Assembly: GCA_021813945.1 (NCBI GenBank)
Contig: JAKAJD010000001.1
Location: 335,072-399,071 of the forward strand
From: a bacterium
Lineage (GTDB): Bacteria > Patescibacteriota > Microgenomatia > Curtissbacterales > GWA2-41-24
Length of the DNA stretch: 64,000 bases
Reading direction: 5' to 3'
The notes under the pieces were generated by a model that made no database searches, was not told where the DNA came from, and was given only the letters and a program-made list of their open reading frames with translations. The translations under genes were made by a program, and so were the position numbers. Shown here piece after piece: positions 5,207 through 57,785 of this stretch (position 1 is the stretch's first letter; every line of letters begins with the position of its first letter).

Positions 5207-5276
5207 AAAAGGTCAGGCCCGCATAAGGGCAGGCCTTTGTCAAGATTAATCTAAGGTTAAGGCCTGCCCTTTACCC
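5207..5276. repeat. intergenic palindromic repeat element, copy A (13-nt inverted arms AAGGGCAGGCCTT / AAGGCCTGCCCTT)
   Basis: Seen in the sequence between tyrS and recG. The 3' arm and tail GGTTAAGGCCTGCCCTTTACCC are near-identical to copy G. Confidence 0.6.
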
Positions 5277-37133: not shown

Positions 37134-39226
37134 GGACAAGTTGCCGCAGTTATAGATTGCCCCGGTGCTCCGGTAGAATTTGGTGGATATATGTGATTGC
37201 TTCCTTTATCAAAACTAAAAGCCTTCACTCGCCAAAAGTAAGTTGTCCCATTTTGCGGCATTAACTGATCTCCCGCCGTCTGTGAATCTGCATCACCGCT
37301 ATCCATAGGCCCAACTGTCATTGTTGGTGTCTCGCTATCCCACTTAAACAGCACAGGATTACCACTATCCGACATTTGTTTTTGGGTTCTGTAAATTCCT
37401 TTAACTCCCCAAACCGAAGGTCTTACGCTTGTACTCGAAGGGCCACCAAATGGATCGCGGCTTATATCGAGCCAAAAACCTGTTTCGAAAGTACTACTAT
37501 CCAAAAAGCTAAAGGTAACAACAGGGTTGGCGCCACTGCATGTTGTAGTAGCCGTTAAACCGGAAGGGTCACCGATAATAGGCGTAACAGTGGGACTAGG
37601 GGTTACAGTCGGACCTGTCGTCGGTGTGGCAGTGGGAAGCGGAGGTTGCGCAGTCCCGGTATCGCCCTGGGCGTAAAACGATGGTGTAGCAGATTTTGTA
37701 TATCCCAAAGGAGCTAAATCAAAAGTGGAATATACATTACCACCGGTTGGGACCTGCCACCTGTAAACTGCAATTAAGTTATTCTTAGTATCCTGATAAT
37801 TTTTCGCATAAAAGGCAATACCTTGAGATGCATAACTCCCACCAGGCGAGCTTGTCTCATAAAGATGAACACCGCTTGAATTGTCCAACCAGTCATAAAT
37901 GGGCACCAAATCGGAAGCCGAAACAGAGGAGGCGGTAAATGCATTACCTTCAAACGTGTACCCCGAAGGGCCGCTCGTCGAACTTTGCAAATAAACCGTA
38001 TTTCCTTTGCTGTCACGCCATTGATAAATAAAAGACCCTAAAACTATTTCCTGCATGTACACCTGATAATCTGTACCATTTGAATATGTCTCGTAAATAA
38101 TCGGTCCCTTGGCAAATTGCTCATGCTGAGCCCCTCCGTAACAAAAAAATCCGGTAGCGCCGCTAACCCATTGGTCGCAATGCACAAGAATTTGCTCGCT
38201 ACTCCAAGGACCACTTAAGCTGTCTGAGGTTCTTGCGGCTACCACACTTACAATTCCGGTATTGTAAGTTGCCACCCATTTACCAACAAAGGTGTTGTAT
38301 CTGACCGAGACACCATGAATATAAGTGAACGGATTCACATCGTTAAGCCATAAAAGCCCCGAGCCAGCCCTCCATAAAGGTGCAACAGCGGAAATATTTG
38401 ACACAAAGGAGCTACCATTCCAATATTGGTAGTCAGCAATATTATTTTTGGCAACAGACGCAATCGGTACCTTCATAAGACCAATTCCTATCTGTTGGCT
38501 CGTATTTTCAACAGAAACGTAAATATAAATATCACTTCCGGAAATTGTCGTCTGCGCACCCATCAACTTGATGCCATAAGTGCTGTAAAGCGTGTTATTA
38601 TTCCACAAATAGCAATTACTGGGATTCGTACAGGTACCAATCCTCTGCGTAGACAAATCCGTGACATTCATTTTTGCCAAACCTGTGCCTTGGGGATTAC
38701 CTGAAAAATCGACACCAACGTAGTAAAAATAAATGTAGCCGCTTGTAATAGTTGAATCAATCCAGGAAACAGGCCACGCGGTTAACTCACCAACCGTCGA
38801 AAGTAGGGGAAACATAGGCGTAGCAGTTGCTCCGGACGCCTTACTTGTTAAATTCATACACACAGAAGGGTCTGTATCGGTGGTATAACTTACGCTGTTT
38901 GGCATAATCCAAATACCACCACTTCCGGTAATATCCCCGAACATAAAATAGCTTTTTCCGCCAAGATAAGTACCGACCCCGCCATCCTGTCCGTAAATAC
39001 CAACACTGCGTTGATTCGCACCCAAAAGGGAACAAACTTTTCTGCTTGCAAAGGAAACAATTGGTTTATCCGTCTGAAAGGGAACACCGCTTGTGCTTGC
39101 CGATTTAACCTTGGATCTTGCCATGTCTTGACCCAGAAACAAAAGCGCACCGAAAACTAAAATTACTGAAAAAAATACAAAAAGGAACCTAAGATGATAA
39201 AGGCGTTCAATAAACATTACGGACAA
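37130..39226 (-). CDS. secreted or membrane-anchored Asp-box (BNR-like) beta-propeller protein with a Pro/Thr linker and a conserved C-terminal FN3-like domain (paralog A)
   Basis: N-terminal TM anchor. Degenerate Asp-box (TSDSLSGPW). PT-rich linker TPTTGPTVTPSPTVTP. The last ~150 aa are about 65 percent identical to the C-terminus of the upstream gene and end in YFWRVKAF...ATCP. Confidence 0.7.
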   Translation of the reverse strand: MSVMFIERLYHLRFLFVFFSVILVFGALLFLGQDMARSKVKSASTSGVPFQTDKPIVSFASRKVCSLLGANQRSVGIYGQDGGVGTYLGGKSYFMFGDITGSGGIWIMPNSVSYTTDTDPSVCMNLTSKASGATATPMFPLLSTVGELTAWPVSWIDSTITSGYIYFYYVGVDFSGNPQGTGLAKMNVTDLSTQRIGTCTNPSNCYLWNNNTLYSTYGIKLMGAQTTISGSDIYIYVSVENTSQQIGIGLMKVPIASVAKNNIADYQYWNGSSFVSNISAVAPLWRAGSGLLWLNDVNPFTYIHGVSVRYNTFVGKWVATYNTGIVSVVAARTSDSLSGPWSSEQILVHCDQWVSGATGFFCYGGAQHEQFAKGPIIYETYSNGTDYQVYMQEIVLGSFIYQWRDSKGNTVYLQSSTSGPSGYTFEGNAFTASSVSASDLVPIYDWLDNSSGVHLYETSSPGGSYASQGIAFYAKNYQDTKNNLIAVYRWQVPTGGNVYSTFDLAPLGYTKSATPSFYAQGDTGTAQPPLPTATPTTGPTVTPSPTVTPIIGDPSGLTATTTCSGANPVVTFSFLDSSTFETGFWLDISRDPFGGPSSTSVRPSVWGVKGIYRTQKQMSDSGNPVLFKWDSETPTMTVGPMDSGDADSQTAGDQLMPQNGTTYFWRVKAFSFDKGSNHIYPPNSTGAPGQSITAATCP

Positions 39227-42129
39227 GTTGCTGCTTTAATTGAAGTGCCGGGTGGGGTAAGACCTCCAGGGTAAATATGGTTGCTTCCTTGGCCAAAATT
39301 GAAAGCCTTAACACGCCAAAAGTAAGTTACACCGCTTTGAGGAGTTTTTTGATCAGCACCAATTGAAGAATCGGTATCTCCACTATCCGCTGGTCCAACA
39401 GTTAAACTCGGCGTTTCATTGTCCCAGGTAAATTGGACTGTGCCCCCAAGCCCTGTCATATCTGCAGCGCTTCTGTAAATTCCTTTTACACCCCAAACGG
39501 AAGGATTGGCGCTTGTATTTGAAGGACCATTAAAAGGGTCCTTAGATATATCAAGCCAAAACCCACTCTCAAAATTGCTATTGTCCAAAAAGCTAAAGGT
39601 GATCTTAGGGCTGGCGCCATTGCAAGAAGTGGTGGCAGTCAGATTCGACGGGTCACCGGCAATTGGAACGACAGTCGGGGATGGTGTTGGCGTTGGCATG
39701 GGAGTAGGTGTTGCTAAAGTGGGATCCTTTTGAAGGGTTACCTTCATCCAGTAAGTACTGTAAGGATTAAACCCTGTACAAAATCTGGACATTCTAAAAT
39801 ATACCACCTGTCCGTCGTTTTCCTCGTAACCTTCACGCATATAAGGTGCATACAAGCAAGGGTAAGTATTACCATTTACAATATCCTGTGGAGCACCCCA
39901 TGGTCCCCACAAATCAGGCGCCGACCTTAACTGAATTGTATACGGAGAAACATCCTTTAAATACATCATTATGTATTTTCCTAAATAGTTATCCCAACGG
40001 ACGCTTAATTCTCCAACGGGAGCAGGCACAACAATAACCGCAGAACTTTCAGCATTCACTGTCCAAGTTGGATTGCCGGAAGGGTCGAAACCCGTTACAT
40101 ATTCGTAGGCTGCCTTGTTTTCAATCGAACCCTCCAAAACTCGCATCAACTTTGCTCCGCCGGTCCTTCCACAGGGAATACCAAAAAAGTAGACATACCC
40201 GCCCTTCTTGTAAATTGCCACCTGGTTAAAGTTGCCGGGAGACCACTTTAGCCCCGAAAGTTTTGTCCAATTCTGGCCACCATCTGTCGATTTGGCAACA
40301 GATGAGTAATTGCAACTCCAGCTCGGTGAAATGGTGCCCTCAAAATAGAAGAGGTATCCTGTTGTTCCAATACTTACCCCATATGTTGGAATTGCCGTTT
40401 CGGTAGCCGGTCCGGCATCATGGGGGATAAGTGCCTTGGCTTTTCCGTCTGCACCGACAATCCAGCCGTCAAAAGTTATTCCGTCACTGGGATTACTATC
40501 AGTAGTATAAGAAAGAGTATTGCTTCGCCAGTTGACAGGGGTAGCGCTTAAGGGACACCCAAACGTGTCACCAAAAACGTTATAAACTTTCCCGTTCCAG
40601 TCAAACATGCTGCCTAAATCAGCACCACAAACATCGACATTTTGGGTAGAATTATTTCCATCCGGGCCAATTTCCTTGTTTACAGAACTCTGACGCGGCG
40701 TTGTACAAGTTTTGCCTGAGTATGAACCCTCTAAAGTCAAATCAGAAGCACTAATAAAGCCATCTGCATTAAGATCAAATCGCTTATCGTAAGTAGCACC
40801 GCCAGTCCTAGAGCCATAATGCGCAGAAATCAAACTCATATCAGCAGAGTCTGATATTCCGTCATTATTAAAATCAGGCGGCCAAGCGTTGGGTCCACAA
40901 GCAAGGTTAATATCTGTTCCCATGTAATTTTCTACATAATCGGTAAACCCATCTTTATCGGTATCCAAGGTAGGCAACGGAGTAGGTGTTGGAGTAGGCG
41001 GGGGATAATAAAGCTTTTCGCCAGCCGCCTTAGCCGCATCAAAATCAGCGATAAAATCCCACCAGTTGGAAAGCTCAGGATTAGGATTGTTAAGTCCCGG
41101 CATATTTTGCCACTGCCAAATGTGAAATTTTACTTCGTCACACTTCCACTCGTCACAATTTATGTTTACAGTTTGCCCTGTTCCACCTGGATTCCAATCT
41201 TCGCAATCCGTCCAAACAAATCTAGTATTGGAATAATCGTACGAACCCCATATCATATCCGGCGTCGCAGGAGTATTAGGCGGATCGTGCGTCCACCCAC
41301 AACGATGGGCGTTACCGGCGCCACTGCCGTCGTTATTGTAATAAGTCCTCCATGGACCCTCAAATTTACCTGTATAAGTTGTAGAGTCAATATTGTTATA
41401 AACTGCCTCAAGCTGATGCCCATGGTCATGGACGGCTGCATCTGTACCTCGTCCGTAATTGTAGTTGTATAAAACATACGTTTTGGAACAAACCGGCATA
41501 TCAGCTATTCCTTCGCTGTTGCTGATGTCCCCATAAGGCCCAGCCATATTCGACTCGGTTGGCTCAATGTTTCCCCAATGGTAACCAAAAACCCAAACTT
41601 CCTTTATCCCCTGTGTATCCACATAGTTGCAAATATTCAGATCAGTTAAAATTTTCATATAATCTGGCCTGTAAATGTTTGTGCCCGCCGGATACCAGGG
41701 GACAGCATTAGTACTAACCGGCATTGCAGCTAAATATTCCTTATCGTCAATAAAACTATAGTGCATAGAAACGGGAGCTGCGGCATCCTTATAACCATGC
41801 AACCTGCTTGCTTCTTCGAGGGCATTTAAAGTACCGCTCTTAAGGGTATCTACATAGGCTCTTACATCGGTAAGACTAGAAGAAACCCCCGTAATAGTCG
41901 AATCAAGGTTTATGCCATCTGCCGTCGGGAAATACCTCAACACCAAAACAGGCATATTATATTGCTTGGATTTATCCGGCACCCCAGCCGCCGCGGCCAG
42001 CACTTGAGGTTTTGCGGCAATCTTAACCTGATATCGTCCAAACCAAACGCCGATTGCTACCAATACAAAAAAGGAGGTGATAAAACCGTAAGAAGCAAAT
42101 TTTCTAAACCTAAAAGAAGCCCGAACCAT
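39217..42129 (-). CDS. large secreted or membrane-anchored protein: unknown N-terminal domain, dockerin-like Ca-binding repeat pair, Asp-box beta-propeller domain, PT linker and conserved C-terminal FN3-like domain (paralog B)
   Basis: N-terminal TM anchor. Dockerin-type repeats DFNNDGISDSADMSLISAHYG and DLNADGFISASDLTLEGSY. Canonical Asp-box STDGGQNWTK. PT linker. C-terminal module shared with paralog A. Overlaps paralog A by 10 nt, so the two are likely co-transcribed. Confidence 0.7.
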   Translation of the reverse strand: MVRASFRFRKFASYGFITSFFVLVAIGVWFGRYQVKIAAKPQVLAAAAGVPDKSKQYNMPVLVLRYFPTADGINLDSTITGVSSSLTDVRAYVDTLKSGTLNALEEASRLHGYKDAAAPVSMHYSFIDDKEYLAAMPVSTNAVPWYPAGTNIYRPDYMKILTDLNICNYVDTQGIKEVWVFGYHWGNIEPTESNMAGPYGDISNSEGIADMPVCSKTYVLYNYNYGRGTDAAVHDHGHQLEAVYNNIDSTTYTGKFEGPWRTYYNNDGSGAGNAHRCGWTHDPPNTPATPDMIWGSYDYSNTRFVWTDCEDWNPGGTGQTVNINCDEWKCDEVKFHIWQWQNMPGLNNPNPELSNWWDFIADFDAAKAAGEKLYYPPPTPTPTPLPTLDTDKDGFTDYVENYMGTDINLACGPNAWPPDFNNDGISDSADMSLISAHYGSRTGGATYDKRFDLNADGFISASDLTLEGSYSGKTCTTPRQSSVNKEIGPDGNNSTQNVDVCGADLGSMFDWNGKVYNVFGDTFGCPLSATPVNWRSNTLSYTTDSNPSDGITFDGWIVGADGKAKALIPHDAGPATETAIPTYGVSIGTTGYLFYFEGTISPSWSCNYSSVAKSTDGGQNWTKLSGLKWSPGNFNQVAIYKKGGYVYFFGIPCGRTGGAKLMRVLEGSIENKAAYEYVTGFDPSGNPTWTVNAESSAVIVVPAPVGELSVRWDNYLGKYIMMYLKDVSPYTIQLRSAPDLWGPWGAPQDIVNGNTYPCLYAPYMREGYEENDGQVVYFRMSRFCTGFNPYSTYWMKVTLQKDPTLATPTPMPTPTPSPTVVPIAGDPSNLTATTSCNGASPKITFSFLDNSNFESGFWLDISKDPFNGPSNTSANPSVWGVKGIYRSAADMTGLGGTVQFTWDNETPSLTVGPADSGDTDSSIGADQKTPQSGVTYFWRVKAFNFGQGSNHIYPGGLTPPGTSIKAATCP

Positions 42130-42350: not shown

Positions 42351-43280
42351 CTATTTGTTTCCCGAATGAAAGCTTTTATGAACGTCCTTTAATTGAGCAT
42401 TTGTAACGTGCGTGTAAATTTGAGTCGTTGCCACATTTTTGTGACCTAAAAGCTCCTGAACCGATCTTAAATCCGCGCCGTTCATCAAAAGGTCTGTTGC
42501 AAATGAATGCCTCAAAACGTGAGGCGACGCTTTAACAGGCAACTTCGCTTTTCTCACATATTTGTCGACAAGCCTCTGGACCGATCGGGGAGTAAGCCTC
42601 ATTTTTTCACCACTTATTGTTGGATCCTGGTTTCCCGAATATCTAATAAAAAGCGGCCCGAAAGCATCGCTTCTTTTGGCAAGATAACGCTCAAGCCACA
42701 AACAGGCTCTGTCCGAAAGAAAAACCACCCTGGCTCGGCCACCTTTACCGATTACCCCAAACTCGCGCCTTTCCAAATTAACCTGGTCCCTGTTAAGTCG
42801 GCACAATTCCGAAACCCTCAACCCTGTTGAAAAGAGCATCTCCATAAGCGCTTTATCCCTTAAACCCCGCTCTACTGAAACATCTGGTTGGCCCAAAAGC
42901 CGGTCAAGCTGGTCTCTGTCTAAAAACTTCAAAGACCTCGATTCCGTTTTCGGAAGTTCTATCTTATCCGGCGTCACAACCTTTAAATCTTTTTTGACTA
43001 AATATCGCAAAAATGATCTCAAAGCGATTACATAGTAGTTCTGTGTCACTTTTTTAATCGGTAAATTACCGTTTGGACTGTTATAATGGGCTAAATAGAC
43101 ACGAAATTTGCGAACAACCTCTAAAGTCAAATCCTGCGGCTTTAAAATAGGGGAGTTAGCTTTCGACCAATCGGAAAAAAACTCTAAATAATGTCGGTAG
43201 TCCCGGATTGTAAGAGGGGAAAGATTCCGTTCAATTTCGCAATATTCCAAAAATTCGTCAACCAGAGCAGGCAGGTCCAT
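42351..43280 (-). CDS. tyrosine site-specific recombinase XerC/XerD family
   Basis: N-terminal SAM-like core-binding domain. Catalytic-domain motifs ...R...HVLRHSFATDLL...LGH...TTQIYTHV (the R-H-R-Y set). Confidence 0.85.
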   Translation of the reverse strand: MDLPALVDEFLEYCEIERNLSPLTIRDYRHYLEFFSDWSKANSPILKPQDLTLEVVRKFRVYLAHYNSPNGNLPIKKVTQNYYVIALRSFLRYLVKKDLKVVTPDKIELPKTESRSLKFLDRDQLDRLLGQPDVSVERGLRDKALMEMLFSTGLRVSELCRLNRDQVNLERREFGVIGKGGRARVVFLSDRACLWLERYLAKRSDAFGPLFIRYSGNQDPTISGEKMRLTPRSVQRLVDKYVRKAKLPVKASPHVLRHSFATDLLMNGADLRSVQELLGHKNVATTQIYTHVTNAQLKDVHKSFHSGNK

Positions 43281-43406
43281 AACTATATTCTACGACGTGG
43301 CTAAATAGAAAATCAACAAGCCATGAACCTAAAGCCAAAATTGTGCGACGTCGCATTAACCCTATAGTTTGCAATCCGAAATTCCTTCCGATATAATAAA
43401 GAGTCG

Positions 43407-44060
43407 ATGGGAAGGCTTATCGAAACCGAGCAGGGATTTGGTGGATTTAATGGTATGTTCACCTTAGCCGAAATGGACCGGGGAAGTAACGCTTACTGCG
43501 AAATCTTCAGAGACACCACCGGAAAACCGCTTGTACAAATTGCCGCAGATATTCTCAGGGAAAAGGGGCAACTTCGGGTGCTGGATGCTGGTTGTGGAAC
43601 AGGCCGGGCAATATACACCTTAAGGGAAGACGTCGCCCGTCAAACCGGATTGCCTCAAGCGGCAATCGACGTAACAGGTATAAACGACGTGGATTACCGG
43701 GGTAAAAGCAAAATGGTTGAGGTAAGAAGAGCAGCCGCAAGCGGAAGCCTAAGGTATATAGTCCAAGATCTGGACATAGCAGATTTAAGCGCCGACCATT
43801 ACGATTTAATAACAAGCGTTGAGGTCCTCATCTATAACGGCTACGAAAAAGCTGCAAGAATTGTTCATAAATTAACATCGGCCATGGCACCTGGGGGAAA
43901 AATGTTTATGACCCTAAAAAGTCGACAAAAACAACATTTAGAAAGCTATATGAGAACTCTTCAGTCGAACGGTTTTAAACTGTTTGAAAGGTCTATTCCT
44001 CCATTCGACCGGGTAGCAGTGATGGTAGAAAAACCAGCCGTTCGACAGGAGCAAGTATAA
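43407..44060 (+). CDS. class I SAM-dependent methyltransferase
   Basis: Motif I VLDAGCGTGRAI. Rossmann-type pattern. Confidence 0.65.
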   Translation: MGRLIETEQGFGGFNGMFTLAEMDRGSNAYCEIFRDTTGKPLVQIAADILREKGQLRVLDAGCGTGRAIYTLREDVARQTGLPQAAIDVTGINDVDYRGKSKMVEVRRAAASGSLRYIVQDLDIADLSADHYDLITSVEVLIYNGYEKAARIVHKLTSAMAPGGKMFMTLKSRQKQHLESYMRTLQSNGFKLFERSIPPFDRVAVMVEKPAVRQEQV

Positions 44061-44061
44061 A

Positions 44062-44799
44062 TTGTTAAAATACTTAAAGATGCCTCAGGAAAACACCTAC
44101 AAACGCGTCATCTTAAAACTCTCCGGAGAAATGTTTCTGGGAAACCGCGAATTCGGAATCGATCCTAAATTCACTACCTGGCTTGCCAGAGAAATCATAA
44201 AAGCCCAAAAAGGCGGCACTCAAATAGCGGCAGTTGTCGGTGGCGGCAACATTTTCCGTGGAACTTCAGCAGAAGAAAACGGTCTTGAGCGAACCGTCGG
44301 CGATTACATCGGCATGCTCGCAACAATCATGAACTCCTTAGCCCTGCAAGCTGCTTTGGAAAAAGAAGGCCAACCTGCGCGGGTGCTTTCTGCAATTGAA
44401 ATTAAAGATGTCTGCGAACCATACATCCGCCGCCGGGCAATTCGCCATTTGGAAAAGGGGCGTGTTGTCATTTATGCGGGAGGTACCGGTAACCCTTACT
44501 TTACCACCGACACGACCGCGGCCTTGAGAGCCCTTGAAACCGGCTGCGACGTTATTCTAAAAGCCACAAAAGTGGATGGTGTTTACGAAAAAGACCCTAC
44601 CAAACACGAAGGCGCCAAAAAATTCGACCACCTAACTTTTTCCCAAGCCCTATCAAGCGACGATATCCAGGTTCTTGATAACAGCGCGCTATCTCTTTGC
44701 AAGGAACACAAAATCCCAATCATCGTTTTTGACCTAGATAAAGAGGATAATATCCAAAAAGCCGTCTCCGGCGAAAAAATAGGGACCTTAATTTCTTAA
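44062..44799 (+). CDS. pyrH: UMP kinase
   Basis: Amino-acid-kinase family motifs (RVILKLSGEMF, VVGGGNIFRG, GTGNPYFTTDT). Confidence 0.9.
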   Translation: MLKYLKMPQENTYKRVILKLSGEMFLGNREFGIDPKFTTWLAREIIKAQKGGTQIAAVVGGGNIFRGTSAEENGLERTVGDYIGMLATIMNSLALQAALEKEGQPARVLSAIEIKDVCEPYIRRRAIRHLEKGRVVIYAGGTGNPYFTTDTTAALRALETGCDVILKATKVDGVYEKDPTKHEGAKKFDHLTFSQALSSDDIQVLDNSALSLCKEHKIPIIVFDLDKEDNIQKAVSGEKIGTLIS

Positions 44800-44858
44800 C
44801 CTCCACATTCTTTTTATCCTATAGTTTTAATCTCCTTTTTGTGGTAAAATCGTAGTTT

Positions 44859-45266
44859 ATGAAAGAAGCCCCTGGTAATCTAAATCTAGATCCGGAAGAA
44901 CAAGCCGTAATAGAAAGCGCAAACTTGGCAATAGCTACAGCCAAAAAAAGGAAACGCTTGGATCTGGTCTATATGGTAAAAGGCCAAAAATACTCAACTA
45001 TAAAAATTGCCTTGCGTCGGAAATTTACACATCTTACAACAGCATTTGCCCAAACTGAATATGGTCCGCAAGAAACTCCACTTGTTCCGCTGGAAATAAA
45101 AGTTGATGCAGACAATTTAACAGACGATGTTTTAATCGATTCAACTATAGCTTTTTGCGAAAGTAATTTTCCTAACCTTAACAGGGCAACAGTAAATATT
45201 TTTGGAAGCCTTCGAGAATATATCAATAAAAGACCCTCAGTAAGTTTTGTAACGATTTCCAGATAA
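44859..45266 (+). CDS. hypothetical protein
   Basis: 135-aa ORF with no recognisable motif. Sits where frr would follow pyrH, but the sequence is not RRF-like. Confidence 0.35.
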   Translation: MKEAPGNLNLDPEEQAVIESANLAIATAKKRKRLDLVYMVKGQKYSTIKIALRRKFTHLTTAFAQTEYGPQETPLVPLEIKVDADNLTDDVLIDSTIAFCESNFPNLNRATVNIFGSLREYINKRPSVSFVTISR

Positions 45267-45318
45267 AGGGCAGGTCTTTTTCTTGCATTTTAGCCATGGT
45301 TAAGGCCTGCCCTTAACC
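45265..45318. repeat. intergenic palindromic repeat element, copy B
   Basis: AAAGGGCAGGTCTTT, 18-nt spacer, GGTTAAGGCCTGCCCTTAACC. Begins 1 nt before the stop of ORF 44859-45266. Confidence 0.6.
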
Positions 45319-46131
45319 TATTTTTAGCCTCGTTTTAGCCTCGCCGAGCCTCTAATTGCCCTTTAAAAGGCTTTTTATAAACCTAGTCGATAAATGGGCC
45401 AGAGTATATAGATCAATTTCCATCAATCCGGACCAAAAATTAACTATTTGTTATAAACAGGGGATAAGTGGATCGAAATTGGTCCGCAACAAAAAAAGAA
45501 AGAAAACTGAAAAAAGCGGGAAAACACGAAAAATATAAAAACGAGAAAGTCCATAAATTATGATAAGTTAAAAAGCTTCGCCCCCTCTCTCAGCCTCAGC
45601 TCGCGTCGCAAAAGTATCATTGTGCGACGTGGAAGCTAATAGGAAATAAGGCCCTACCATAGGGAATATAAGGGACAAATTTTTTGAAGTGATTTAAAAC
45701 TGTTTATTCTATTTTTGGTCACTTTTCGCCTCATTTTAGCCCTTCCCCGAAAAAGGCAAAAATGCCACTTTCTAATGCCTTTAGCAGTTAACTTGTCAAC
45801 ATGCCAAAAAATATGTAAGAATCTCTTACGTAGAGTAGCAGAGTCTTATAGTCCTCCGTCAGGATCGCCTTAATATATTATTTATATCTTTAGTTGCGGG
45901 AATTTTTTTCATCATCTAACTTTTTCACGGTTCCTTTTTTCACGATTTCACAAACTATAACTATATCACACTATATCACCTGTTTCCCTTCCCCACCTCC
46001 TCTATCCCCGGTTTTTATAATTTTTCCTGAAGCTAATTTGAAGCTAAAATTTTCTCTATTTTTGGAGGAAAATAACTAAAATATACCACTTCTCTACAAA
46101 ATACTATAGGTTAATAATCGTTCACTTATTC

Positions 46132-46177
46132 AAGGTCAGGTCTTAGCCCTAGATTAACCCAACAAAGGCCTGACCTT
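46132..46177. repeat. intergenic palindromic repeat element, copy C (divergent)
   Basis: AAGGTCAGG, 28-nt spacer, CCTGACCTT. Sits just after the stop of the gene at 46194-47024. Confidence 0.45.
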
Positions 46178-46193
46178 CACTTATCACTTACAA

Positions 46194-47024
46194 TTACCCT
46201 CCCCATCTGGACGAAATCATAATTATCACAGCTACAACTAAAGCAACCGATAAGTGCTCCCACACAATCCTTGGCCTCAGCTTTTCGTGAAACACAAACT
46301 GCCCCAGCCCCAAAAGAACATACATGACAGTGATAACGACAAGAGAAGCGTTTATTGGTGCCAGCGGCCAAAGCGAAAAAACTGTAGCGACTTGGGCAGT
46401 CACAAGAGCAAAAACGATTGTATGCCAAAACACTTTTCTGGTAATGTATTCCTCAAGTCCAAAAGACCACAAGTTAACTAAATATATGGGGCCACAAACT
46501 GCCGCAACCCCCAACACTGTTAAAAATATTGAACCGTGAAGTGAAAACAGGACGTTTAGCAAAAAAAACGCAGCCACCAGAGAAAACAAATGTCCAACCG
46601 CATGGGCTGCCCTAAGAAGCGCAATCGTGCGGATTGCGGCGACATTATAGATATTTGAAGTCAACATTAAAAGGTAAACCGAGATTCCAAATGCCAGGGC
46701 AAACGGCAAGCGCGTAATCCACCTAACCGGAAGTAAAAAGTAAAAAAGAGTCGCGCCCATTACAAAATAAACCGGCAGCAAAAGAAGCAAAAAATATTTG
46801 ATTCCCGAAAGCTCTCCCCAAAGCGAAAAAACAGCCAAAAGCAAGGTCGACAAGGCTAAAAAGGCCATCACTTGATACCTAAGTGATTCGGAAACGGTTT
46901 GTGTGGCAATCAAAATTGCAGTTAGAAAAAACGACATCAAAATGAACCTTTGACGTTTGGTTATTTCGTACGACGTTATTTTCGGAAAAAATTTAAATGG
47001 ATTTGAAAAAATTTTTAGCTTCAT
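46194..47024 (-). CDS. hypothetical polytopic membrane protein
   Basis: 276 aa with about eight hydrophobic helices. No motif recognised. Confidence 0.55.
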   Translation of the reverse strand: MKLKIFSNPFKFFPKITSYEITKRQRFILMSFFLTAILIATQTVSESLRYQVMAFLALSTLLLAVFSLWGELSGIKYFLLLLLPVYFVMGATLFYFLLPVRWITRLPFALAFGISVYLLMLTSNIYNVAAIRTIALLRAAHAVGHLFSLVAAFFLLNVLFSLHGSIFLTVLGVAAVCGPIYLVNLWSFGLEEYITRKVFWHTIVFALVTAQVATVFSLWPLAPINASLVVITVMYVLLGLGQFVFHEKLRPRIVWEHLSVALVVAVIIMISSRWGG

Positions 47025-47050: not shown

Positions 47051-47101
47051 AAAGGCCAGGCCTTTACCCTAGACAATACGTAGTTAAGGCCTGGCCTTAA
47101 C
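47051..47101. repeat. intergenic palindromic repeat element, copy D (the best-conserved copy)
   Basis: AAAGGCCAGGCCTTT, 17-nt spacer, GTTAAGGCCTGGCCTTAAC. The ruvC stop codon lies inside the second palindrome. Confidence 0.65.
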
Positions 47102-47683
47102 ATTCGGCTTCGGCTTCGGCTTTGACTTCCCTACCTTTGTATTTCGACTTATCGAAACCTTTTTTACGTTTGATACATCTGTTAACTGTGTAACCTTTAT
47201 GTAGTGGCATATTGCAACTGCCAGCGCGTCTGCCGCATCGTCTATATAACCATTTTTCGGTTTTGCCAATTTCCTTTTACCTAAATACTTCATCACGTAC
47301 TTTTGGATTTCTTTTTTATCCGCCTTCCCGGAACCTGTTATTGTGTGCTTTACATGAAGACCTTGGTATTCAAATATGGGTATCCTATAGGATGCGACAG
47401 TCGAGAGTACTACTCCCCTTGCCTGCCCAACAGTCATTGCCGTTCTGGAATTTACTCCAAAGAACAATTGTTCAATAGAAACGCAATCGGGTTTATATTG
47501 TTTCAGTAGCTTGTGAAGGTCTTTTTGAATACTAAAAAGCCTCATAGGCATTTCCATCTCCTTTGGAGTGACAATACAACCGTATTCTATTAACTGAAAT
47601 TGCTTTCCAGAGCTTTCAACGAGGGTCTCAACAAGCCCATAGCCTGTTGTTGCAGTACCTGGATCTATGCCTAAAATCAACAT
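47084..47683 (-). CDS. ruvC: Holliday junction resolvase RuvC with a lysine/proline-rich C-terminal tail
   Basis: N-terminus MLILGIDPGTATTGYGLVE. RNase H-like catalytic acidic residues. C-terminal tail KSKPKPKPNVKARP. Confidence 0.9.
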   Translation of the reverse strand: MLILGIDPGTATTGYGLVETLVESSGKQFQLIEYGCIVTPKEMEMPMRLFSIQKDLHKLLKQYKPDCVSIEQLFFGVNSRTAMTVGQARGVVLSTVASYRIPIFEYQGLHVKHTITGSGKADKKEIQKYVMKYLGKRKLAKPKNGYIDDAADALAVAICHYIKVTQLTDVSNVKKVSISRNTKVGKSKPKPKPNVKARP

Positions 47684-47686
47684 GGA

Positions 47687-48421
47687 TTAATCCCTAACTC
47701 TGGGTCCGTCGTATTCGACTTCGTTTTCGTCCAAACGTCTGACCGGTTTTTCCCTCAGTGACTCTTCAACTACGTGTGCAACCAACCCTGGTACTCTGGC
47801 AATTATAAAAATACCTTTACCTACTTTAGGATTAAATCCCATCTCGAGAAGTAACGCCCCGAAAATTCCGTCTATATTTAGCGGCAATTTTTTGACACCT
47901 TTGGAAACTTCTGCTTCAACTTCCAGCGCAAACTTTACATACTTTCCGTAGAATCCAAGCTTCTTGGCAATCTCCAAAAGCTTTTGCGTTCTCGGATCAA
48001 CCGTATAAAGCCTGTGGCCAAAACCGCTGACCCGTTCTCCCCTTTTTGCAAAATCGGCAACCATTTCCGCAGCGCCAACACTCTGCCACTTTTTAAAATT
48101 CTCCATCGTCTGCTGTATTGCACCGCCATGGAATTCACCAAACGCCAAAACTCCGGCTGCAACAGCTGCCTGTACCGGCGACCCAGCCGAATAAACGTTT
48201 CTGGCCGCAACCACAGAAGAAGGTTCAACTCCATGATCAATAGCAATCGTAAATATTGCATCAAGCATTCTTTCCGAATTTTTGTCCGGCATCTTACCCA
48301 TCAAAATTAAATAGATTGTTCTTGTGAAAGATGGAGATTCTGCAAGTTTGGTCAAATCGTAACCATAAACATACGGCTTGCCGTTGTGATGTGTCGAAAT
48401 TGAAGTTTTATACTTTGCCAT
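47687..48421 (-). CDS. truncated citrate-synthase-family protein (candidate citryl-CoA lyase, or the ATP-citrate lyase C-terminal module)
   Basis: Citrate synthase signature GFGHRLYTVDPRT. Only 244 aa, which corresponds to the C-terminal catalytic half of citrate synthase. Confidence 0.7.
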   Translation of the reverse strand: MAKYKTSISTHHNGKPYVYGYDLTKLAESPSFTRTIYLILMGKMPDKNSERMLDAIFTIAIDHGVEPSSVVAARNVYSAGSPVQAAVAAGVLAFGEFHGGAIQQTMENFKKWQSVGAAEMVADFAKRGERVSGFGHRLYTVDPRTQKLLEIAKKLGFYGKYVKFALEVEAEVSKGVKKLPLNIDGIFGALLLEMGFNPKVGKGIFIIARVPGLVAHVVEESLREKPVRRLDENEVEYDGPRVRD

Positions 48422-48438
48422 TATCTAAATTATTATAC

Positions 48439-49332
48439 CTACTTAATAACTTTCTTCAAAATTCCAGGAATATCTTCAAAGTTTTCGGCCAAAATTGCGC
48501 CGGATTTTTTGATTGATGCCACTTTTTGCTCCATCGTTGAATCCAGCCCCACAATTGCACCGGCGTGGCCTAATGCAGTATCCTTTGGCAGTTTTTCCGC
48601 AAACTTTCCTGCCAAAAATATGATCAGGGGTTTTGTGAATTTTTTCTCCGCGACTAATTTAGCCGCCTCTATTTCCGCATTTCCACCAACCTCTCCAAAC
48701 ATCACGGCAACCTTTGTTTGAGGATCCCCTTCAAACATTTCCAAAACATCTACAAACGTTGTCCCGACAAGCAAATCACCACCAATTCCTACAACTGTTG
48801 ATTGCCCAAAACCGGCATTTGTAATCATGGAACCCAACTCCGAACACATTCCGCCGGATTTAGAAATCACTCCAACCGGACCCTTAGAAAAGGTAATCTT
48901 GGCATTCGGCCCGCCGATAGAACCGACCTTTCCTTCGCTCGGCGAAATTGCCCCAACAGAGTTTGGTCCTAAAACCCTAACCCCTTTTTCTTTTGCTCGA
49001 TACAATATTCGGCATGTATCTAAAACCGGAACCCTTTCCGCAAAAATATGTATTAGTGGAATCCCGGCATCAATTGCTTCCATCGCCGCATCCAATGTTA
49101 AAAGTGGTGGCACGTTGACCATTGCACAATCAACCGGACCAAGATCGGAAACCAACTCTTTGACCGAATTAAAAACCGGCAAATCCAACGCTTCCTGTCC
49201 ACCCTTTCCCGGCGTTACTCCCCCCACAACTTTCATCCCGTAATCTAAAAGATCGGCACATGCCGAAAGCCCCGATTTCCCGGTAATTCCCTGAATTAAA
49301 ACTTTAGTTTCGCTATCAACTAGAATTGCCAT
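48439..49332 (-). CDS. succinyl-CoA synthetase alpha-subunit-like protein (CoA-binding and CoA-ligase domains; phosphohistidine loop present)
   Basis: CoA-binding Rossmann N-terminus (KVLIQGITGKSG). GHAGAIVG phosphohistidine motif. 297 aa. Confidence 0.85.
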   Translation of the reverse strand: MAILVDSETKVLIQGITGKSGLSACADLLDYGMKVVGGVTPGKGGQEALDLPVFNSVKELVSDLGPVDCAMVNVPPLLTLDAAMEAIDAGIPLIHIFAERVPVLDTCRILYRAKEKGVRVLGPNSVGAISPSEGKVGSIGGPNAKITFSKGPVGVISKSGGMCSELGSMITNAGFGQSTVVGIGGDLLVGTTFVDVLEMFEGDPQTKVAVMFGEVGGNAEIEAAKLVAEKKFTKPLIIFLAGKFAEKLPKDTALGHAGAIVGLDSTMEQKVASIKKSGAILAENFEDIPGILKKVIK

Positions 49333-49340
49333 AATCTTTC

Positions 49341-49392
49341 GTTAAGGCCTGGCCCTAAAGTTTGATTTTCCCAGCCTAAAGGCCAGGCCTTT
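49341..49392. repeat. intergenic palindromic repeat element, copy E (inverted orientation)
   Basis: GTTAAGGCCTGGCCCTAA, 19-nt spacer, AAAGGCCAGGCCTTT. Located between the sucC-like stop and the sucD-like start. Confidence 0.65.
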
Positions 49393-50578
49393 CTCTTTTG
49401 AATTCTTCCGAAAGCTCAACCATTTTCTTGCATGCCACAGATATCGGTGTTTCCGGTCCAAACAAATGGATATCAAATCCTTCTTTTTTGGCAAAACGCT
49501 CAAGCATTTCGTATGCTTCTTTTTGCCTGGGCCCGCCGCGGCGAATAACGATCGGGTAATTCGGTTTTGGTTTTACTTTCAAAAGCCCGTCACAAAATCC
49601 GGCTAACGTTGCGTAAATATCCGTAAAATTGGCAACGGCTCCTGCGACCAAACAACCTGCCAAACCTTCTTTTCCTAATGTAATTTCGGTTAACTTTTCA
49701 ACTTTTTCCTGCGGCGGATTCCCGGAATATTCCGTGTAATTTGAAGGTTTGCCACCGACTTCTGAAAGCGCATCCATCACCAAAAGCGACGCTCCTCCGC
49801 CGGATGCCAAAACCGCGATATCTCCACCAAATTCTATAAAGGTGGAACCTGCACTTCCGCGATAATCTTCCTCGTCGATTTTTCTGGCCGCCAGCTCTCT
49901 TTCTGTCGGTACTGCTCCAGCAGAACCTTTTTGTAAAACATCCAAATCACGATGTCGCGCCAGGCCCGCATCATCCAAAATAATCTTTGCATCAACTGCT
50001 AAATAATCATCTCCGACCTTCGCAATCGGGTTCACCTCAACTAAACGACAATCGTATCTAACAAACGCATCCCAAAGCCTCACCAAGAAATCAACAAGTT
50101 TTTCGTCGCCCAAATTTTTAAAAAGTTCTTTTTTGTTTGGCCCCGAAAACGGATCAATGTCGAACCGCAAAATTTCATCCGGTGAATTCTTCTTAACCTC
50201 TTCTATATCCATTCCCCCGCTTTTGGAAAATAAAAGAAACGGAATTTTTAAAGTTGTGTCGTAAGTAATAGAAGCATAATATTCGCCTTCAATTTGCGCC
50301 TTTTCCGCAAGTGATATAAACCGCACTTGCTCATCAGCAAAAGTTGACCCAAACATTCCTTTGCAAAAATCCAGAAGCTGTTTTTCGTTTGTACAGATTT
50401 TTATTCCCCCACCTTTTCCCCGTTTTCCGGAAAGCACCTGCACTTTGGCAACTATCGGAAATCTCAACCTTTGTCTCGCTTGTTCGACTTCTTCCATGTT
50501 GGAGCAAGCCACAAAAAAAGGGCTTTCAATTCCCACCTTGGAAAGCAAATTGTGCCCTTCAAATTCGTAGAGTTTCAC
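49376..50578 (-). CDS. succinyl-CoA synthetase beta-subunit-like ATP-grasp protein
   Basis: ATP-grasp motifs KVQVLSGKRGKGGGIKI and EVNPI. C-terminal CoA-ligase domain (GGDIAVLASGGGASLLVMDAL). 400 aa. Confidence 0.85.
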   Translation of the reverse strand: MKLYEFEGHNLLSKVGIESPFFVACSNMEEVEQARQRLRFPIVAKVQVLSGKRGKGGGIKICTNEKQLLDFCKGMFGSTFADEQVRFISLAEKAQIEGEYYASITYDTTLKIPFLLFSKSGGMDIEEVKKNSPDEILRFDIDPFSGPNKKELFKNLGDEKLVDFLVRLWDAFVRYDCRLVEVNPIAKVGDDYLAVDAKIILDDAGLARHRDLDVLQKGSAGAVPTERELAARKIDEEDYRGSAGSTFIEFGGDIAVLASGGGASLLVMDALSEVGGKPSNYTEYSGNPPQEKVEKLTEITLGKEGLAGCLVAGAVANFTDIYATLAGFCDGLLKVKPKPNYPIVIRRGGPRQKEAYEMLERFAKKEGFDIHLFGPETPISVACKKMVELSEEFKRERPGL

Positions 50579-57732: not shown

Positions 57733-57785
57733 AAAGGCCAGGCCTTTACGCTTTGACTTTCGATGGTTAAGGCCTAGCCTTAACC
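57733..57785. repeat. intergenic palindromic repeat element, copy F
   Basis: AAAGGCCAGGCCTTT, 17-nt spacer, GGTTAAGGCCTAGCCTTAACC. Located between the rluA-family gene stop and the kef start. Confidence 0.65.

Follow-up and report, generated by a model that had tools for sequence, protein, structure and literature searches.

Xer-family recombinases unlink chromosome dimers at short sites such as dif of Escherichia coli, the target of XerCD, and Bsdif of Bacillus subtilis, the target of CodV-RipX. Both are 28 bp long, occur once per chromosome and consist of two partly symmetric 11-bp arms around a 6-bp centre; this 11+6+11 layout defines dif, Bsdif and archaeal dif (PMC5357621). In XerS/difSL of streptococci and lactococci and in XerH/difH of Helicobacter and Campylobacter, a lone recombinase and its site form a genetically linked module (PMC5357621). 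The archaeal XerA/dif system works without FtsK, with a dif that is often not 180 degrees from oriC and, in some species, with xerA and dif combined in a module (PMC5357621). On the plasmid ColE1, cer is a 280-bp non-coding region that works with ArgR and PepA, and its accessory sequences enforce resolution only, without FtsK and independently of position. Here we describe a 927-bp non-coding locus (positions 45267-46193) in a 64-kb stretch of contig JAKAJD010000001.1 of a Curtissbacterales bacterium; we refer to this whole stretch of 64,000 nucleotides as the window. The reading that we favour, with moderate confidence, treats the gap as the place of recombination in a Xer system that has a single recombinase and is shared across Microgenomates-type bacteria of the Candidate Phyla Radiation (CPR), with a dif-type core, a self-regulating xer gene and cer-like flanks.

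The dif-like core and the linked xer gene

According to a map of open reading frames (ORFs), the locus is the largest ORF-free gap of the window. It lies between convergent genes, at 44859-45266 on the plus strand (135 aa) and at 46194-47024 on the minus strand (a 276-aa membrane protein of the DUF5656 family), and contains only ORFs of 60 aa (45356-45538) and 61 aa (45894-46079). The first-pass annotation had drawn attention to the length of this gap and to the short spacers elsewhere, and both observations stand: across the window the median spacer is 37 bp and the second-largest gap, in what is a crude ORF map, is 310 bp. We gathered the first relatives through homologues of the flanking DUF5656 protein and their contigs, and not through any motif. 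At the same place, relatives with 89%, 74% and 71% identity in the DUF5656 protein have gaps of 874, 958 and 827 bp, and syntenic gaps in relatives span 780-1250 bp. The alignment of four gaps (the window and three relatives) contains a dozen conserved blocks, among them 27 consecutive bases without any change, ACGTCGCACAATGATACTTTTGCGACG (45601-45633 of the window; minus strand, as for the DUF5656 gene). The first-pass annotation had reckoned with a region that might be absent or unconserved in close relatives; in the alignment with related genomes the gap is conserved.

The most conserved element of the gap, overlooked in the first-pass annotation, is a near-perfect 28-bp inverted repeat at 45603-45630, which reads ACGTCGCACAA-TGATAC-TTTTGCGACGC on the minus strand. 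Two 11-bp arms, dyad-symmetric at 10 of 11 positions, enclose a 6-bp centre; the element thus has the two arms, the partial dyad symmetry and the centre of 6-8 bp that mark a dif-type site. In the syntenic relatives found independently of the motif (71-89% identity in the flanking protein), the inner 24-26 bp of this core are invariant. Compared with E. coli dif, whose sequence we checked in NC_000913.3, the core has the same base at 13 of 28 positions and at 12 of 18 in the inner part, where the arm bases are similar (..CGCAnAA-TGnnnn-TTnTG..). The three outer positions of the arms retain dyad symmetry in 70-75% of the sequences and change in step: we counted 30 double changes against 12.2 in shuffled data, a value reached in none of 500 shuffles.

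The core appears to be present in a single copy. We scanned GTDB species genomes for exact matches to a core 20-mer and metagenomes for an 18-mer. The 20-mer occurs once per genome in 30 species-level CPR genomes (Curtissbacteria, Woesebacteria, Gottesmanbacteria and other Patescibacteria, belonging to several classes), a count that refers to exact matches in draft metagenome-assembled genomes (MAGs); one extra match, inside an ORF of a Firmicute, is attributable to chance. The window holds one full copy of the core within 3 mismatches of the 20-mer. The 18-mer is present in 105 metagenome stretches, and de-replication left 73 lineages with full context, to which the counts out of 73 given below refer. 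Since most of these loci, the first three relatives excepted, were collected by searching for the core itself, its invariance in the 73-lineage set is partly so by construction.

In 68 of the 73 lineages the core is preceded, on its own strand, by a gene for a DUF5656 homologue (26-100% identity); in about 60 of them this gene directly abuts the gap and ends 400-950 bp from the core. Such a core-bearing gap of 0.8-1.2 kb after the DUF5656 gene is found in Curtiss-, Woese- and Gottesmanbacteria. The gap keeps its position, length and sequence blocks even in distant clades, whose DUF5656 proteins are only 26-40% identical to that of the window. We read this as non-coding DNA that has a function, as opposed to junk; the locus is real, chromosomal and deeply conserved. 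This much of the first-pass interpretation, that the DNA is functional although non-coding, is borne out by the conservation of position, length and blocks; none of the specific explanations offered along with it holds. One of these was a decayed gene or prophage remnant. The gap does contain only short low-complexity ORFs and has lineage-specific palindromes resembling repetitive extragenic palindromic (REP) elements at both ends, as a decayed gene, prophage remnant or neutral spacer might. However, its position, length, block order and spacing are conserved across CPR classes, and codon periodicity is absent from its invariant stretches of 24-27 nt, which form no conserved ORF; the 50-aa genes called in two relatives (L012 and L017) are not syntenic, and no conserved small ORF remains. 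We regard decay or neutrality as having practically no chance of being the explanation.

Downstream of the core, in the same orientation, lies a xer gene for a 309-aa tyrosine recombinase, the only such gene in the 64-kb window. Its full-length NCBIfam matches are to XerC (245 bits), XerD (242 bits) and XerA (208 bits, against a cut-off of 220 for the XerA_Arch model), all under the equivalog cut-offs, and its best PDB matches are XerD 1a0p and XerA 4a8e. With the XerS model the score is 122 bits, where the cut-off is 267, and the PDB match to XerH reaches only 4e-11. Our homologue search with this protein returned only Curtissbacteria proteins, at an identity of at least 80%. Among the lineages with enough sequence, xer is found downstream of the core and in the same orientation in 51 of 51, at a distance of +416 to +4369 bp and with 0-3 unrelated genes in between that differ by clade. 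The core is thus accompanied by a Xer-family recombinase that is a candidate cognate enzyme, though one whose scores lie below the equivalog cut-offs. XerS/difSL and XerH/difH resemble this arrangement in pairing recombinase and site as a module and in having arms that are A-rich and T-rich at their inner ends. However, difSL is 31 bp long with an 11-bp centre, whereas here the centre has 6 bp, the enzyme is XerC/D/A-like with a XerS score far under the cut-off, and xer stands 0.4-4.4 kb away, sometimes behind other genes; the locus is not a single module of the XerS/difSL kind.

The link between core and recombinase gene extends to sequence. The 9-mer GTCGCACAA from the left arm occurs exactly twice in the window, at 45620 within the core and at 43341 in the promoter region of xer. 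The arm GTCGCACAA(T) stands alone upstream of xer, in the same orientation, in 32 of 51 lineages, 51-224 nt (mostly 70-122 nt) from the start codon within a search range of 250 nt. Outside Curtissbacteria it is joined to a canonical promoter, GTCGCACAAT-A-TTGACA-N17-TAtAAT; the solitary arm is upstream of the -35 box and hence outside the xer transcript. If the core is drawn as a hairpin, the solitary arm corresponds to one strand of the stem plus 3-4 nt of the loop. A stem strand and part of a loop repeated in DNA upstream of the -35 box of xer point to a protein-binding DNA arm, and therefore not to an RNA stem. We take this reuse as the decisive evidence tying the core to the recombinase, with each 11-bp arm a putative site for one monomer. 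Solitary Xer arms are also known from the terminus region of B. subtilis, where XerD-binding half-sites (XDS) serve a task other than recombination; here the solitary arm is on the promoter of the recombinase gene itself. We also observed a conserved (A/G)CGTCGTA(G/C), one mismatch from CGTCGCA of the arm, which precedes the start codon of xer by about 10 nt (43281-43300 in the window, and the equivalent place in Curtissbacteria relatives) and may represent a further, weaker arm-like site within the leader of the gene.

A half-site directly beside the -35 box of xer, promoter-like TGnTATAgT elements pointing toward the core, a location away from a skew switch and the absence of any observed recombination product would also suit a palindrome and half-site that are only operators of locus and xer transcription and take no part in recombination, bound either by Xer as a repressor or roadblock or by another protein, such as the YebC-family neighbour. 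We think this unlikely. The centre-to-centre arm spacing of 17 bp, the invariant asymmetric 6-bp centre and the apparent binding to a single arm are what tyrosine recombinases typically show and dimeric regulators do not; each genome scanned had a single match to the site, which xer accompanies in 51 of 51 lineages; and operators alone leave some 800 bp of conserved, strictly spaced flanks unexplained.

One partial duplication of the core was observed. In the lineage L118 (344-440), an inverted copy of the right arm and the first 4 nt of the centre (GTCGCAAAAGTAT followed by GCG) lies 11 nt past the core and is followed by another palindrome; it could have been left by an aberrant crossover in the central region, or be coincidental.

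Conserved flanks and the possibility of a transcript

Conservation reaches some 450 bp upstream of the core and some 300 bp beyond it on the other side, 750-800 bp in total, in the form of short boxes (Table 1). Their spacing is held within 1-2 bp despite the unconserved, T-rich sequence of the spacers, and the interquartile ranges of the four inner boxes are 1-4 bp wide. The order of the boxes is the same in distant clades, at somewhat different distances; TCCCCY, for example, is found in 27 of 38 other loci at about +193. Several boxes are direct-repeat pairs spaced by 10-11 bp, and these include the repeats CTATATCAC, AAGCTAA and TTTTAGCC that the first-pass annotation had pointed out.

Those repeats can be found in the sequence as described, give or take a few positions. 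TTTTAGCC occurs four times in the gap, at 45288, 45322, 45333 and 45734 (1-3 nt from the positions originally given); these are 4 of the 8 copies in the window, in 1.4% of its length, for which shuffled sequences with 5.75 copies per window predict about 0.08. The run of TTTTCAC-type motifs consists of TTTTCACG at 45922-45929 and 45937-45944 and of TTTCACA at 45946-45952, and the direct repeats are ACTATATCAC, twice within 45960-45979, and TGAAGCTAA, twice within 46028-46047. The direct repeats that the annotation had flagged turned out to be conserved blocks: CGTGAAA is present in 44, TAGCTTC in 39, GGCTAAA in 35 and GATATAG in 65 of the 73 lineages.

The strands of these boxes are informative. 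For TGATATA and GATATAG the counts are 64-65 of 73 lineages, against 3-5 for the reverse complements, which means that the orientation is fixed, and GGGGAAG is found in 42 and its reverse complement in 3. TGATATAGT matches an extended -10 element (TGnTATAAT) and has a single orientation in 64 of 73 lineages, which makes transcription toward the core plausible. The TTTTCACG pair behaves differently between clades. Curtissbacteria have it, in the form CGTGAAAA, immediately downstream from the TGATATAGT block, whereas in other clades it lies upstream of the block in the opposite orientation, as TTTTCACG; being inverted and relocated, it fits protein sites on duplex DNA. In clades other than Curtissbacteria, TGTGGATAA stands where Curtissbacteria have TGCTAAAG. 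It occurs in 18 of 73 lineages, always in one orientation, and in 17 of these 18 at -158 to -222.

Table 1. Coordinates of the features in the window. Signed numbers under Remarks are positions relative to the core; spacing statistics are from 35 Curtissbacteria-type lineages (IQR, interquartile range).
Feature	Position	Strand	Remarks
Entire conserved non-coding locus	45267..46193	-	orientation taken from the DUF5656 and xer genes
Core, dif-like 28-bp site	45603..45630	-	inner 24 bp (45605-45628) invariant
6-bp asymmetric centre TGATAC, presumed strand-exchange region	45614..45619	-	read from the sequence; architecture by analogy with dif (PMC5357621)
xer, 309-aa XerC/XerD/XerA-like tyrosine recombinase	42351..43280	-	Pfam Phage_integrase and SAM_1
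Solitary left arm GTCGCACAA	43341..43349	-	70 nt upstream of the xer start codon, promoter region
CCTATAGT (-10-like), then G-rich box GAGAAGTGGTA	46084..46110	-	conserved blocks; CTATAGT in 37/73 lineages
TTAGCTTCA twice, 11-bp spacing (the AAGCTAA repeat of the first-pass annotation)	46028..46047	-	TAGCTTC in 39/73 lineages
Tandem TGATATAGT pair, GGTGATATAGTGTGATATAGTTATAG	45955..45980	-	two extended -10-like elements TGnTATAgT; median -354, IQR -368 to -345, 35/35 loci
CGTGAAAA repeats (the TTTTCACG run)	45922..45952	-	CGTGAAA in 44/73 lineages
TGCTAAAG box	45779..45786	-	-161; 33/35 Curtissbacteria-type loci, IQR -163 to -159
G-rich box CGGGGAAGGGC (GGGGAAGGG)	45739..45749	-	-123; 27/35 Curtissbacteria-type loci, IQR -124 to -122
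Purine box GAGGCTGAGAGAGGGGG	45581..45597	-	+34, directly after the core; IQR +34 to +35
T-rich, G-poor spacer	45482..45578	-	in relatives often 8-bp tandem repeats (ATTTCTAA)n; sequence poorly conserved, length fixed
C-box TTATCCCCT (CTCTCCCCC in distant clades)	45459..45467	-	+161; TCCCCY in 35/35 Curtissbacteria-type loci, IQR +160 to +162
3' block AAAAAGCC..GGGC..GGCTCGGCGAGGCTAAAACGAGGCTAAAAAT	45320..45376	-	holds two TTTTAGCC copies; conserved among relatives
Palindrome B	45266..45314	.	lineage-specific; flagged terminator-like
Palindrome C	46132..46177	.	lineage-specific; at the end of the DUF5656 gene
DUF5656 (PF18900) polytopic membrane protein	46194..47024	-	gene ends where the locus begins
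ruvC, Holliday-junction resolvase	47084..47683	-	Pfam RuvC 1.5e-40

The arrangement recalls cer of ColE1 and psi of pSC101, in which a Xer core lies within a few hundred base pairs of non-coding accessory DNA bound by helper proteins; sites of this type function at any place on a replicon and without FtsK. Unlike them, the locus is chromosomal and its flanks extend on both sides over about 750 bp, in which no ARG-box or similar motif was identified.

One of the spacers is also a point of assembly failure. The assembly of SRR13299515 breaks in the T-rich spacer (about 45528-45540), some 80 nt past the core, and two of its contigs (L005 and L010) stop at this point, one from each side. Strain-level variation in length is suggested, or else the low complexity of the spacer, which in relatives consists of 8-bp repeats.

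Fixed orientation and a promoter-like element raise the possibility of an RNA product, and the first-pass annotation had listed an unrecognised structured RNA among its explanations. Known families do not account for the locus. Rfam at gathering scores gave no match in the window or in 18 related 8-kb loci, and in E-value mode only chance matches (E>4 in the gap of the window, E>0.18 in 20 further short loci); the covariance models of transfer-messenger RNA (tmRNA), RNase P, signal recognition particle (SRP) RNA, 6S, OLE, GOLLD, ROOL and the other known families have no match. ARAGORN found no tmRNA and, in the tRNA/tmRNA scan, only a distant tRNA-Leu, and the signature motifs of RNase P, tmRNA, SRP and parS are absent from the 73 relatives.

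Nor does the region fold like an ornate RNA. The z-scores for folding of the 641-nt region are -0.45 and -0.79 on the two strands, no better than shuffled sequence. Outside the core, the mean z of 100-nt segments in 38 relatives stays at or above about -0.6, with one exception, the segment from +175 to +275 of the opposite strand (about -1.0); the core segments reach -1.4 and -2.0. RNAalifold, applied to a clade set and to 87 sequences, recovers the invariant stem only, and a global MAFFT alignment followed by a covariation scan gave no other helix. The partners of the C-box in base-pair-probability calculations are inconsistent, and complementarity between the two flanks is weak (z of -0.5 to -0.8 on both strands). 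Known non-coding RNAs and ornate structured RNAs are rejected on the combined strength of Rfam, folding z-scores, RNAalifold and covariation.

A less structured transcript deserves separate consideration. The gap might encode a mostly unstructured non-coding RNA of about 650 nt, starting from the TGATATAGT promoter and running in the direction of the DUF5656 gene, with the hairpin as a recognition element for protein or RNA and DUF5656 as the partner, much as OLE RNA has a membrane partner, OapA. The extended -10-like element at fixed distance and orientation in 64 of 73 lineages, the colinear blocks in one orientation, the tight linkage to a membrane-protein gene and the constant position of the locus on the leading strand all agree with this, as does the extension of the stem, which covaries through G-U intermediates (AU 28, GU 28, GC 8). 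Against these stand the missing Rfam match, the folding z-scores and the RNAalifold result, the repetition of half of the stem and part of the loop in untranscribed DNA upstream of the -35 box of xer, and the inversion of the TTTTCACG repeats between clades. OLE itself is an ornate RNA with many covarying helices; the likeness lies in a large conserved non-coding locus beside a conserved membrane-protein gene, and the difference in that only one helix is supported here, which behaves as a DNA site. We therefore judge such an RNA quite improbable as the explanation of the gap, although one could coexist with the DNA site.

Strand composition, neighbouring genes and dispersed palindromes

Canonical dif sites sit at the switch of GC skew. 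On the top strand of the window, C exceeds G to either side of the gap, with skews of -0.077 (plus-strand genes) and -0.095 (minus-strand genes) to the left and of -0.091 and -0.185, respectively, to the right. We also oriented 27 non-redundant loci by their cores: upstream, every one of the 27 is G-rich (mean +0.18); downstream, 24 are G-rich (mean +0.06) and the remaining 3 weakly negative, at most -0.024. The locus thus follows the leading strand in every case, and no consistent skew switch occurs at it.

This bears on another proposal of the first-pass annotation, a replication origin. AT-rich stretches, direct repeats at 10-11 bp spacing and a perfect TGTGGATAA in 18 of 73 relatives would be in keeping with an origin, a terminus or a cluster of DnaA boxes. 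However, the skew keeps its sign in the window and in 24 of 27 loci, and no DnaA box was found in the gap of the window. A DnaA-box cluster was considered and rejected: in the relatives, TGTGGATAA is a single box in fixed orientation, aligned with TGCTAAAG and confined to -158 to -222 in 17 of 18 lineages. The locus has neither the cluster of DnaA boxes nor the skew switch that, together with an AT-rich unwinding element, mark an oriC, and the reading is contradicted; we give it very little credence. The same annotation had also spoken of a partition-type region. That comes closest in spirit, for the locus does look like a DNA site for chromosome maintenance; the actual signal is a dif-like palindrome linked to Xer.

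Several neighbours of the locus are related to recombination. In the Curtissbacteria-type clade ruvC lies upstream of the DUF5656 gene, and in distant clades a yebC-like gene takes this place; the ancestral order was evidently yebC or ruvC, DUF5656, locus and xer. The genes yebC, ruvC and xer are all recombination-related, which we count in favour of an Xer locus. An FtsK-like gene is not present in the 64-kb window. The predicted structure of DUF5656 is all-helical with about 10 helices (mean model confidence, pLDDT, 79), and a structure search gave no informative fold match.

To either side of the locus, gene content is variable, as seen in L024, L033, L069, L089, L133, L143, L144 and L152 and in the window itself, where genes for a methyltransferase, an amino-acid kinase and the 135-aa protein (43407-45266) separate the locus from xer; some lineages have 1-2 additional genes between DUF5656 and the locus. 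Its borders seem to tolerate insertions. In the closest relative (L012, 89% protein identity), an array of about 10 (GTGATAA)n units lies directly 3' of the DUF5656 stop codon (L012 5862-5930), at the place where the window carries a REP-like palindrome.

This palindrome, which the first-pass annotation had labelled C, and its counterpart B at the other end of the gap are indeed present, and belong to a dispersed family of six intergenic copies at gene ends (5225-5271, 45266-45314, 46132-46177, 47052-47098, 49344-49391 and 57734-57781). Each copy consists of AAGGCCWGGCCTT, about 20 nt, and AAGGCCWGGCCTT; the arm has 31 matches in the window against 3.1 expected, in keeping with a REP-like family. 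B and C are absent from the syntenic gaps of the relatives L012, L016 and L017, which shows the family to be young, lineage-specific and distinct from the conserved locus. Both are probably terminators or stabilisers, B being that of the 135-aa gene. A related palindrome is inserted within the gap of L017.

Further genes around the locus were noted in passing. Next to ruvC, three adjacent minus-strand genes (47687-50578) resemble a set for citryl-CoA synthetase and citryl-CoA lyase, a split ATP-citrate lyase, with the domains ATP-grasp_2 and Citrate_bind, CoA_binding and Ligase_CoA, and the C-terminal half of citrate synthase; this metabolism is unusual for a CPR bacterium and is kept in relatives. 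Adjoining xer in the Curtissbacteria clade is a gene for a 970-aa protein (39217-42129, minus strand) with DUF4185 and a weak dockerin match, which may be secreted or exposed at the surface. Finally, several MAGs with a CPR-type locus, DUF5656 and xer are titled "uncultured Gammaproteobacteria" or "Pseudomonadales" (L018, L022, L028, L031, L035, L037, L044, L045 and L047); these titles are probably wrong.

A proposed Xer system in CPR bacteria

In the Xer system that we propose, each 11-bp arm of the core would be bound by one monomer of the adjacent XerC/D/A-like recombinase, and strands would be cleaved and exchanged around the asymmetric TGATAC centre. The same recombinase would bind the lone arm by its own -35 box and thereby probably repress xer. 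The boxes of the flanks would be accessory or architectural sequences, binding helper proteins that shape the synapse and allow only the resolution of dimers to monomers.

Several points weigh against this proposal. The exact 9-mer is missing from the xer promoter in 19 of 51 lineages. For genes of either strand, the skew of the window keeps its sign over 45 kb to one side of the locus and 18 kb to the other, and the locus is neither at a terminus nor at a skew switch, being at least 45 kb away on the terminus-ward side. No structural variant, second full site or mobile element integrated at the core was seen among the loci, and no viral contig carries the core site in our search for carriage by phages or integrative mobile elements exploiting Xer (IMEX). 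Most loci were selected through the core, and the figures do not give its universality in the phylum. That Xer binds the arm is a presumption, suggested by the reuse of the arm at the xer promoter, and the accessory role of the flanks is drawn from analogy. The outer arm positions, finally, contain 47 G-T pairs against 17 A-C pairs on the leading-strand side. This bias hints at folding of one strand, as RNA or as single-stranded DNA of the lagging-strand template, which a purely duplex site does not need; it may also be phylogenetic noise. Conceivably the core is used as a folded single strand, like attP of the CTX phage or attC of integrons.

The locus would thus work like dif without being a full member of the classical class, in which we do not place it because its location was compared with the terminus and found to be elsewhere. 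It differs from XerCD/dif and Bsdif in the single recombinase gene seen, in its nearly identical arms, in lying off the skew switch, in the roughly 800 bp of conserved non-coding DNA that surround it, in the extra arm at the xer promoter and in having no known link to FtsK. With archaeal XerA/dif it has in common a single recombinase and a near-palindromic 11+6+11 site; there, however, dif coincides with a skew inversion of short polar motifs, large conserved flanks are not described, and the present locus is from bacteria of the CPR. If the flanks are of a cer-like accessory design, as we propose by analogy, the position away from the terminus would make sense.

Only tentatively, and with considerable doubt, do we go one step further: CPR/Microgenomates bacteria might resolve chromosome dimers, or carry out some other programmed rearrangement, with a single Xer away from the terminus, taking the selectivity of the reaction from about 750 bp of cer-like DNA and not from FtsK and the terminus, with DUF5656 coupling the complex to the envelope or the division site.

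To our knowledge, chromosome maintenance and segregation in the ultra-small, host-dependent bacteria of the CPR, with chromosomes of about 1 Mb, are almost unknown, and in the searchable literature we found nothing on this locus, DUF5656, CPR dif sites or large CPR non-coding RNAs. The locus provides a concrete candidate for a Xer site in these bacteria, a 28-mer conserved over several classes together with one partner recombinase. Its position off the skew switch, the putatively autoregulatory half-site at xer, the large and strictly spaced flanks and the obligate membrane-protein neighbour are features not described for chromosomal dif. If our reading is true, it would extend the single-recombinase Xer systems (XerS, XerH and XerA) to a major uncultured radiation and supply a landmark for the curation of CPR genomes, and it would suggest that the directionality of chromosomal recombination can be based on accessory sequences and be independent of FtsK.

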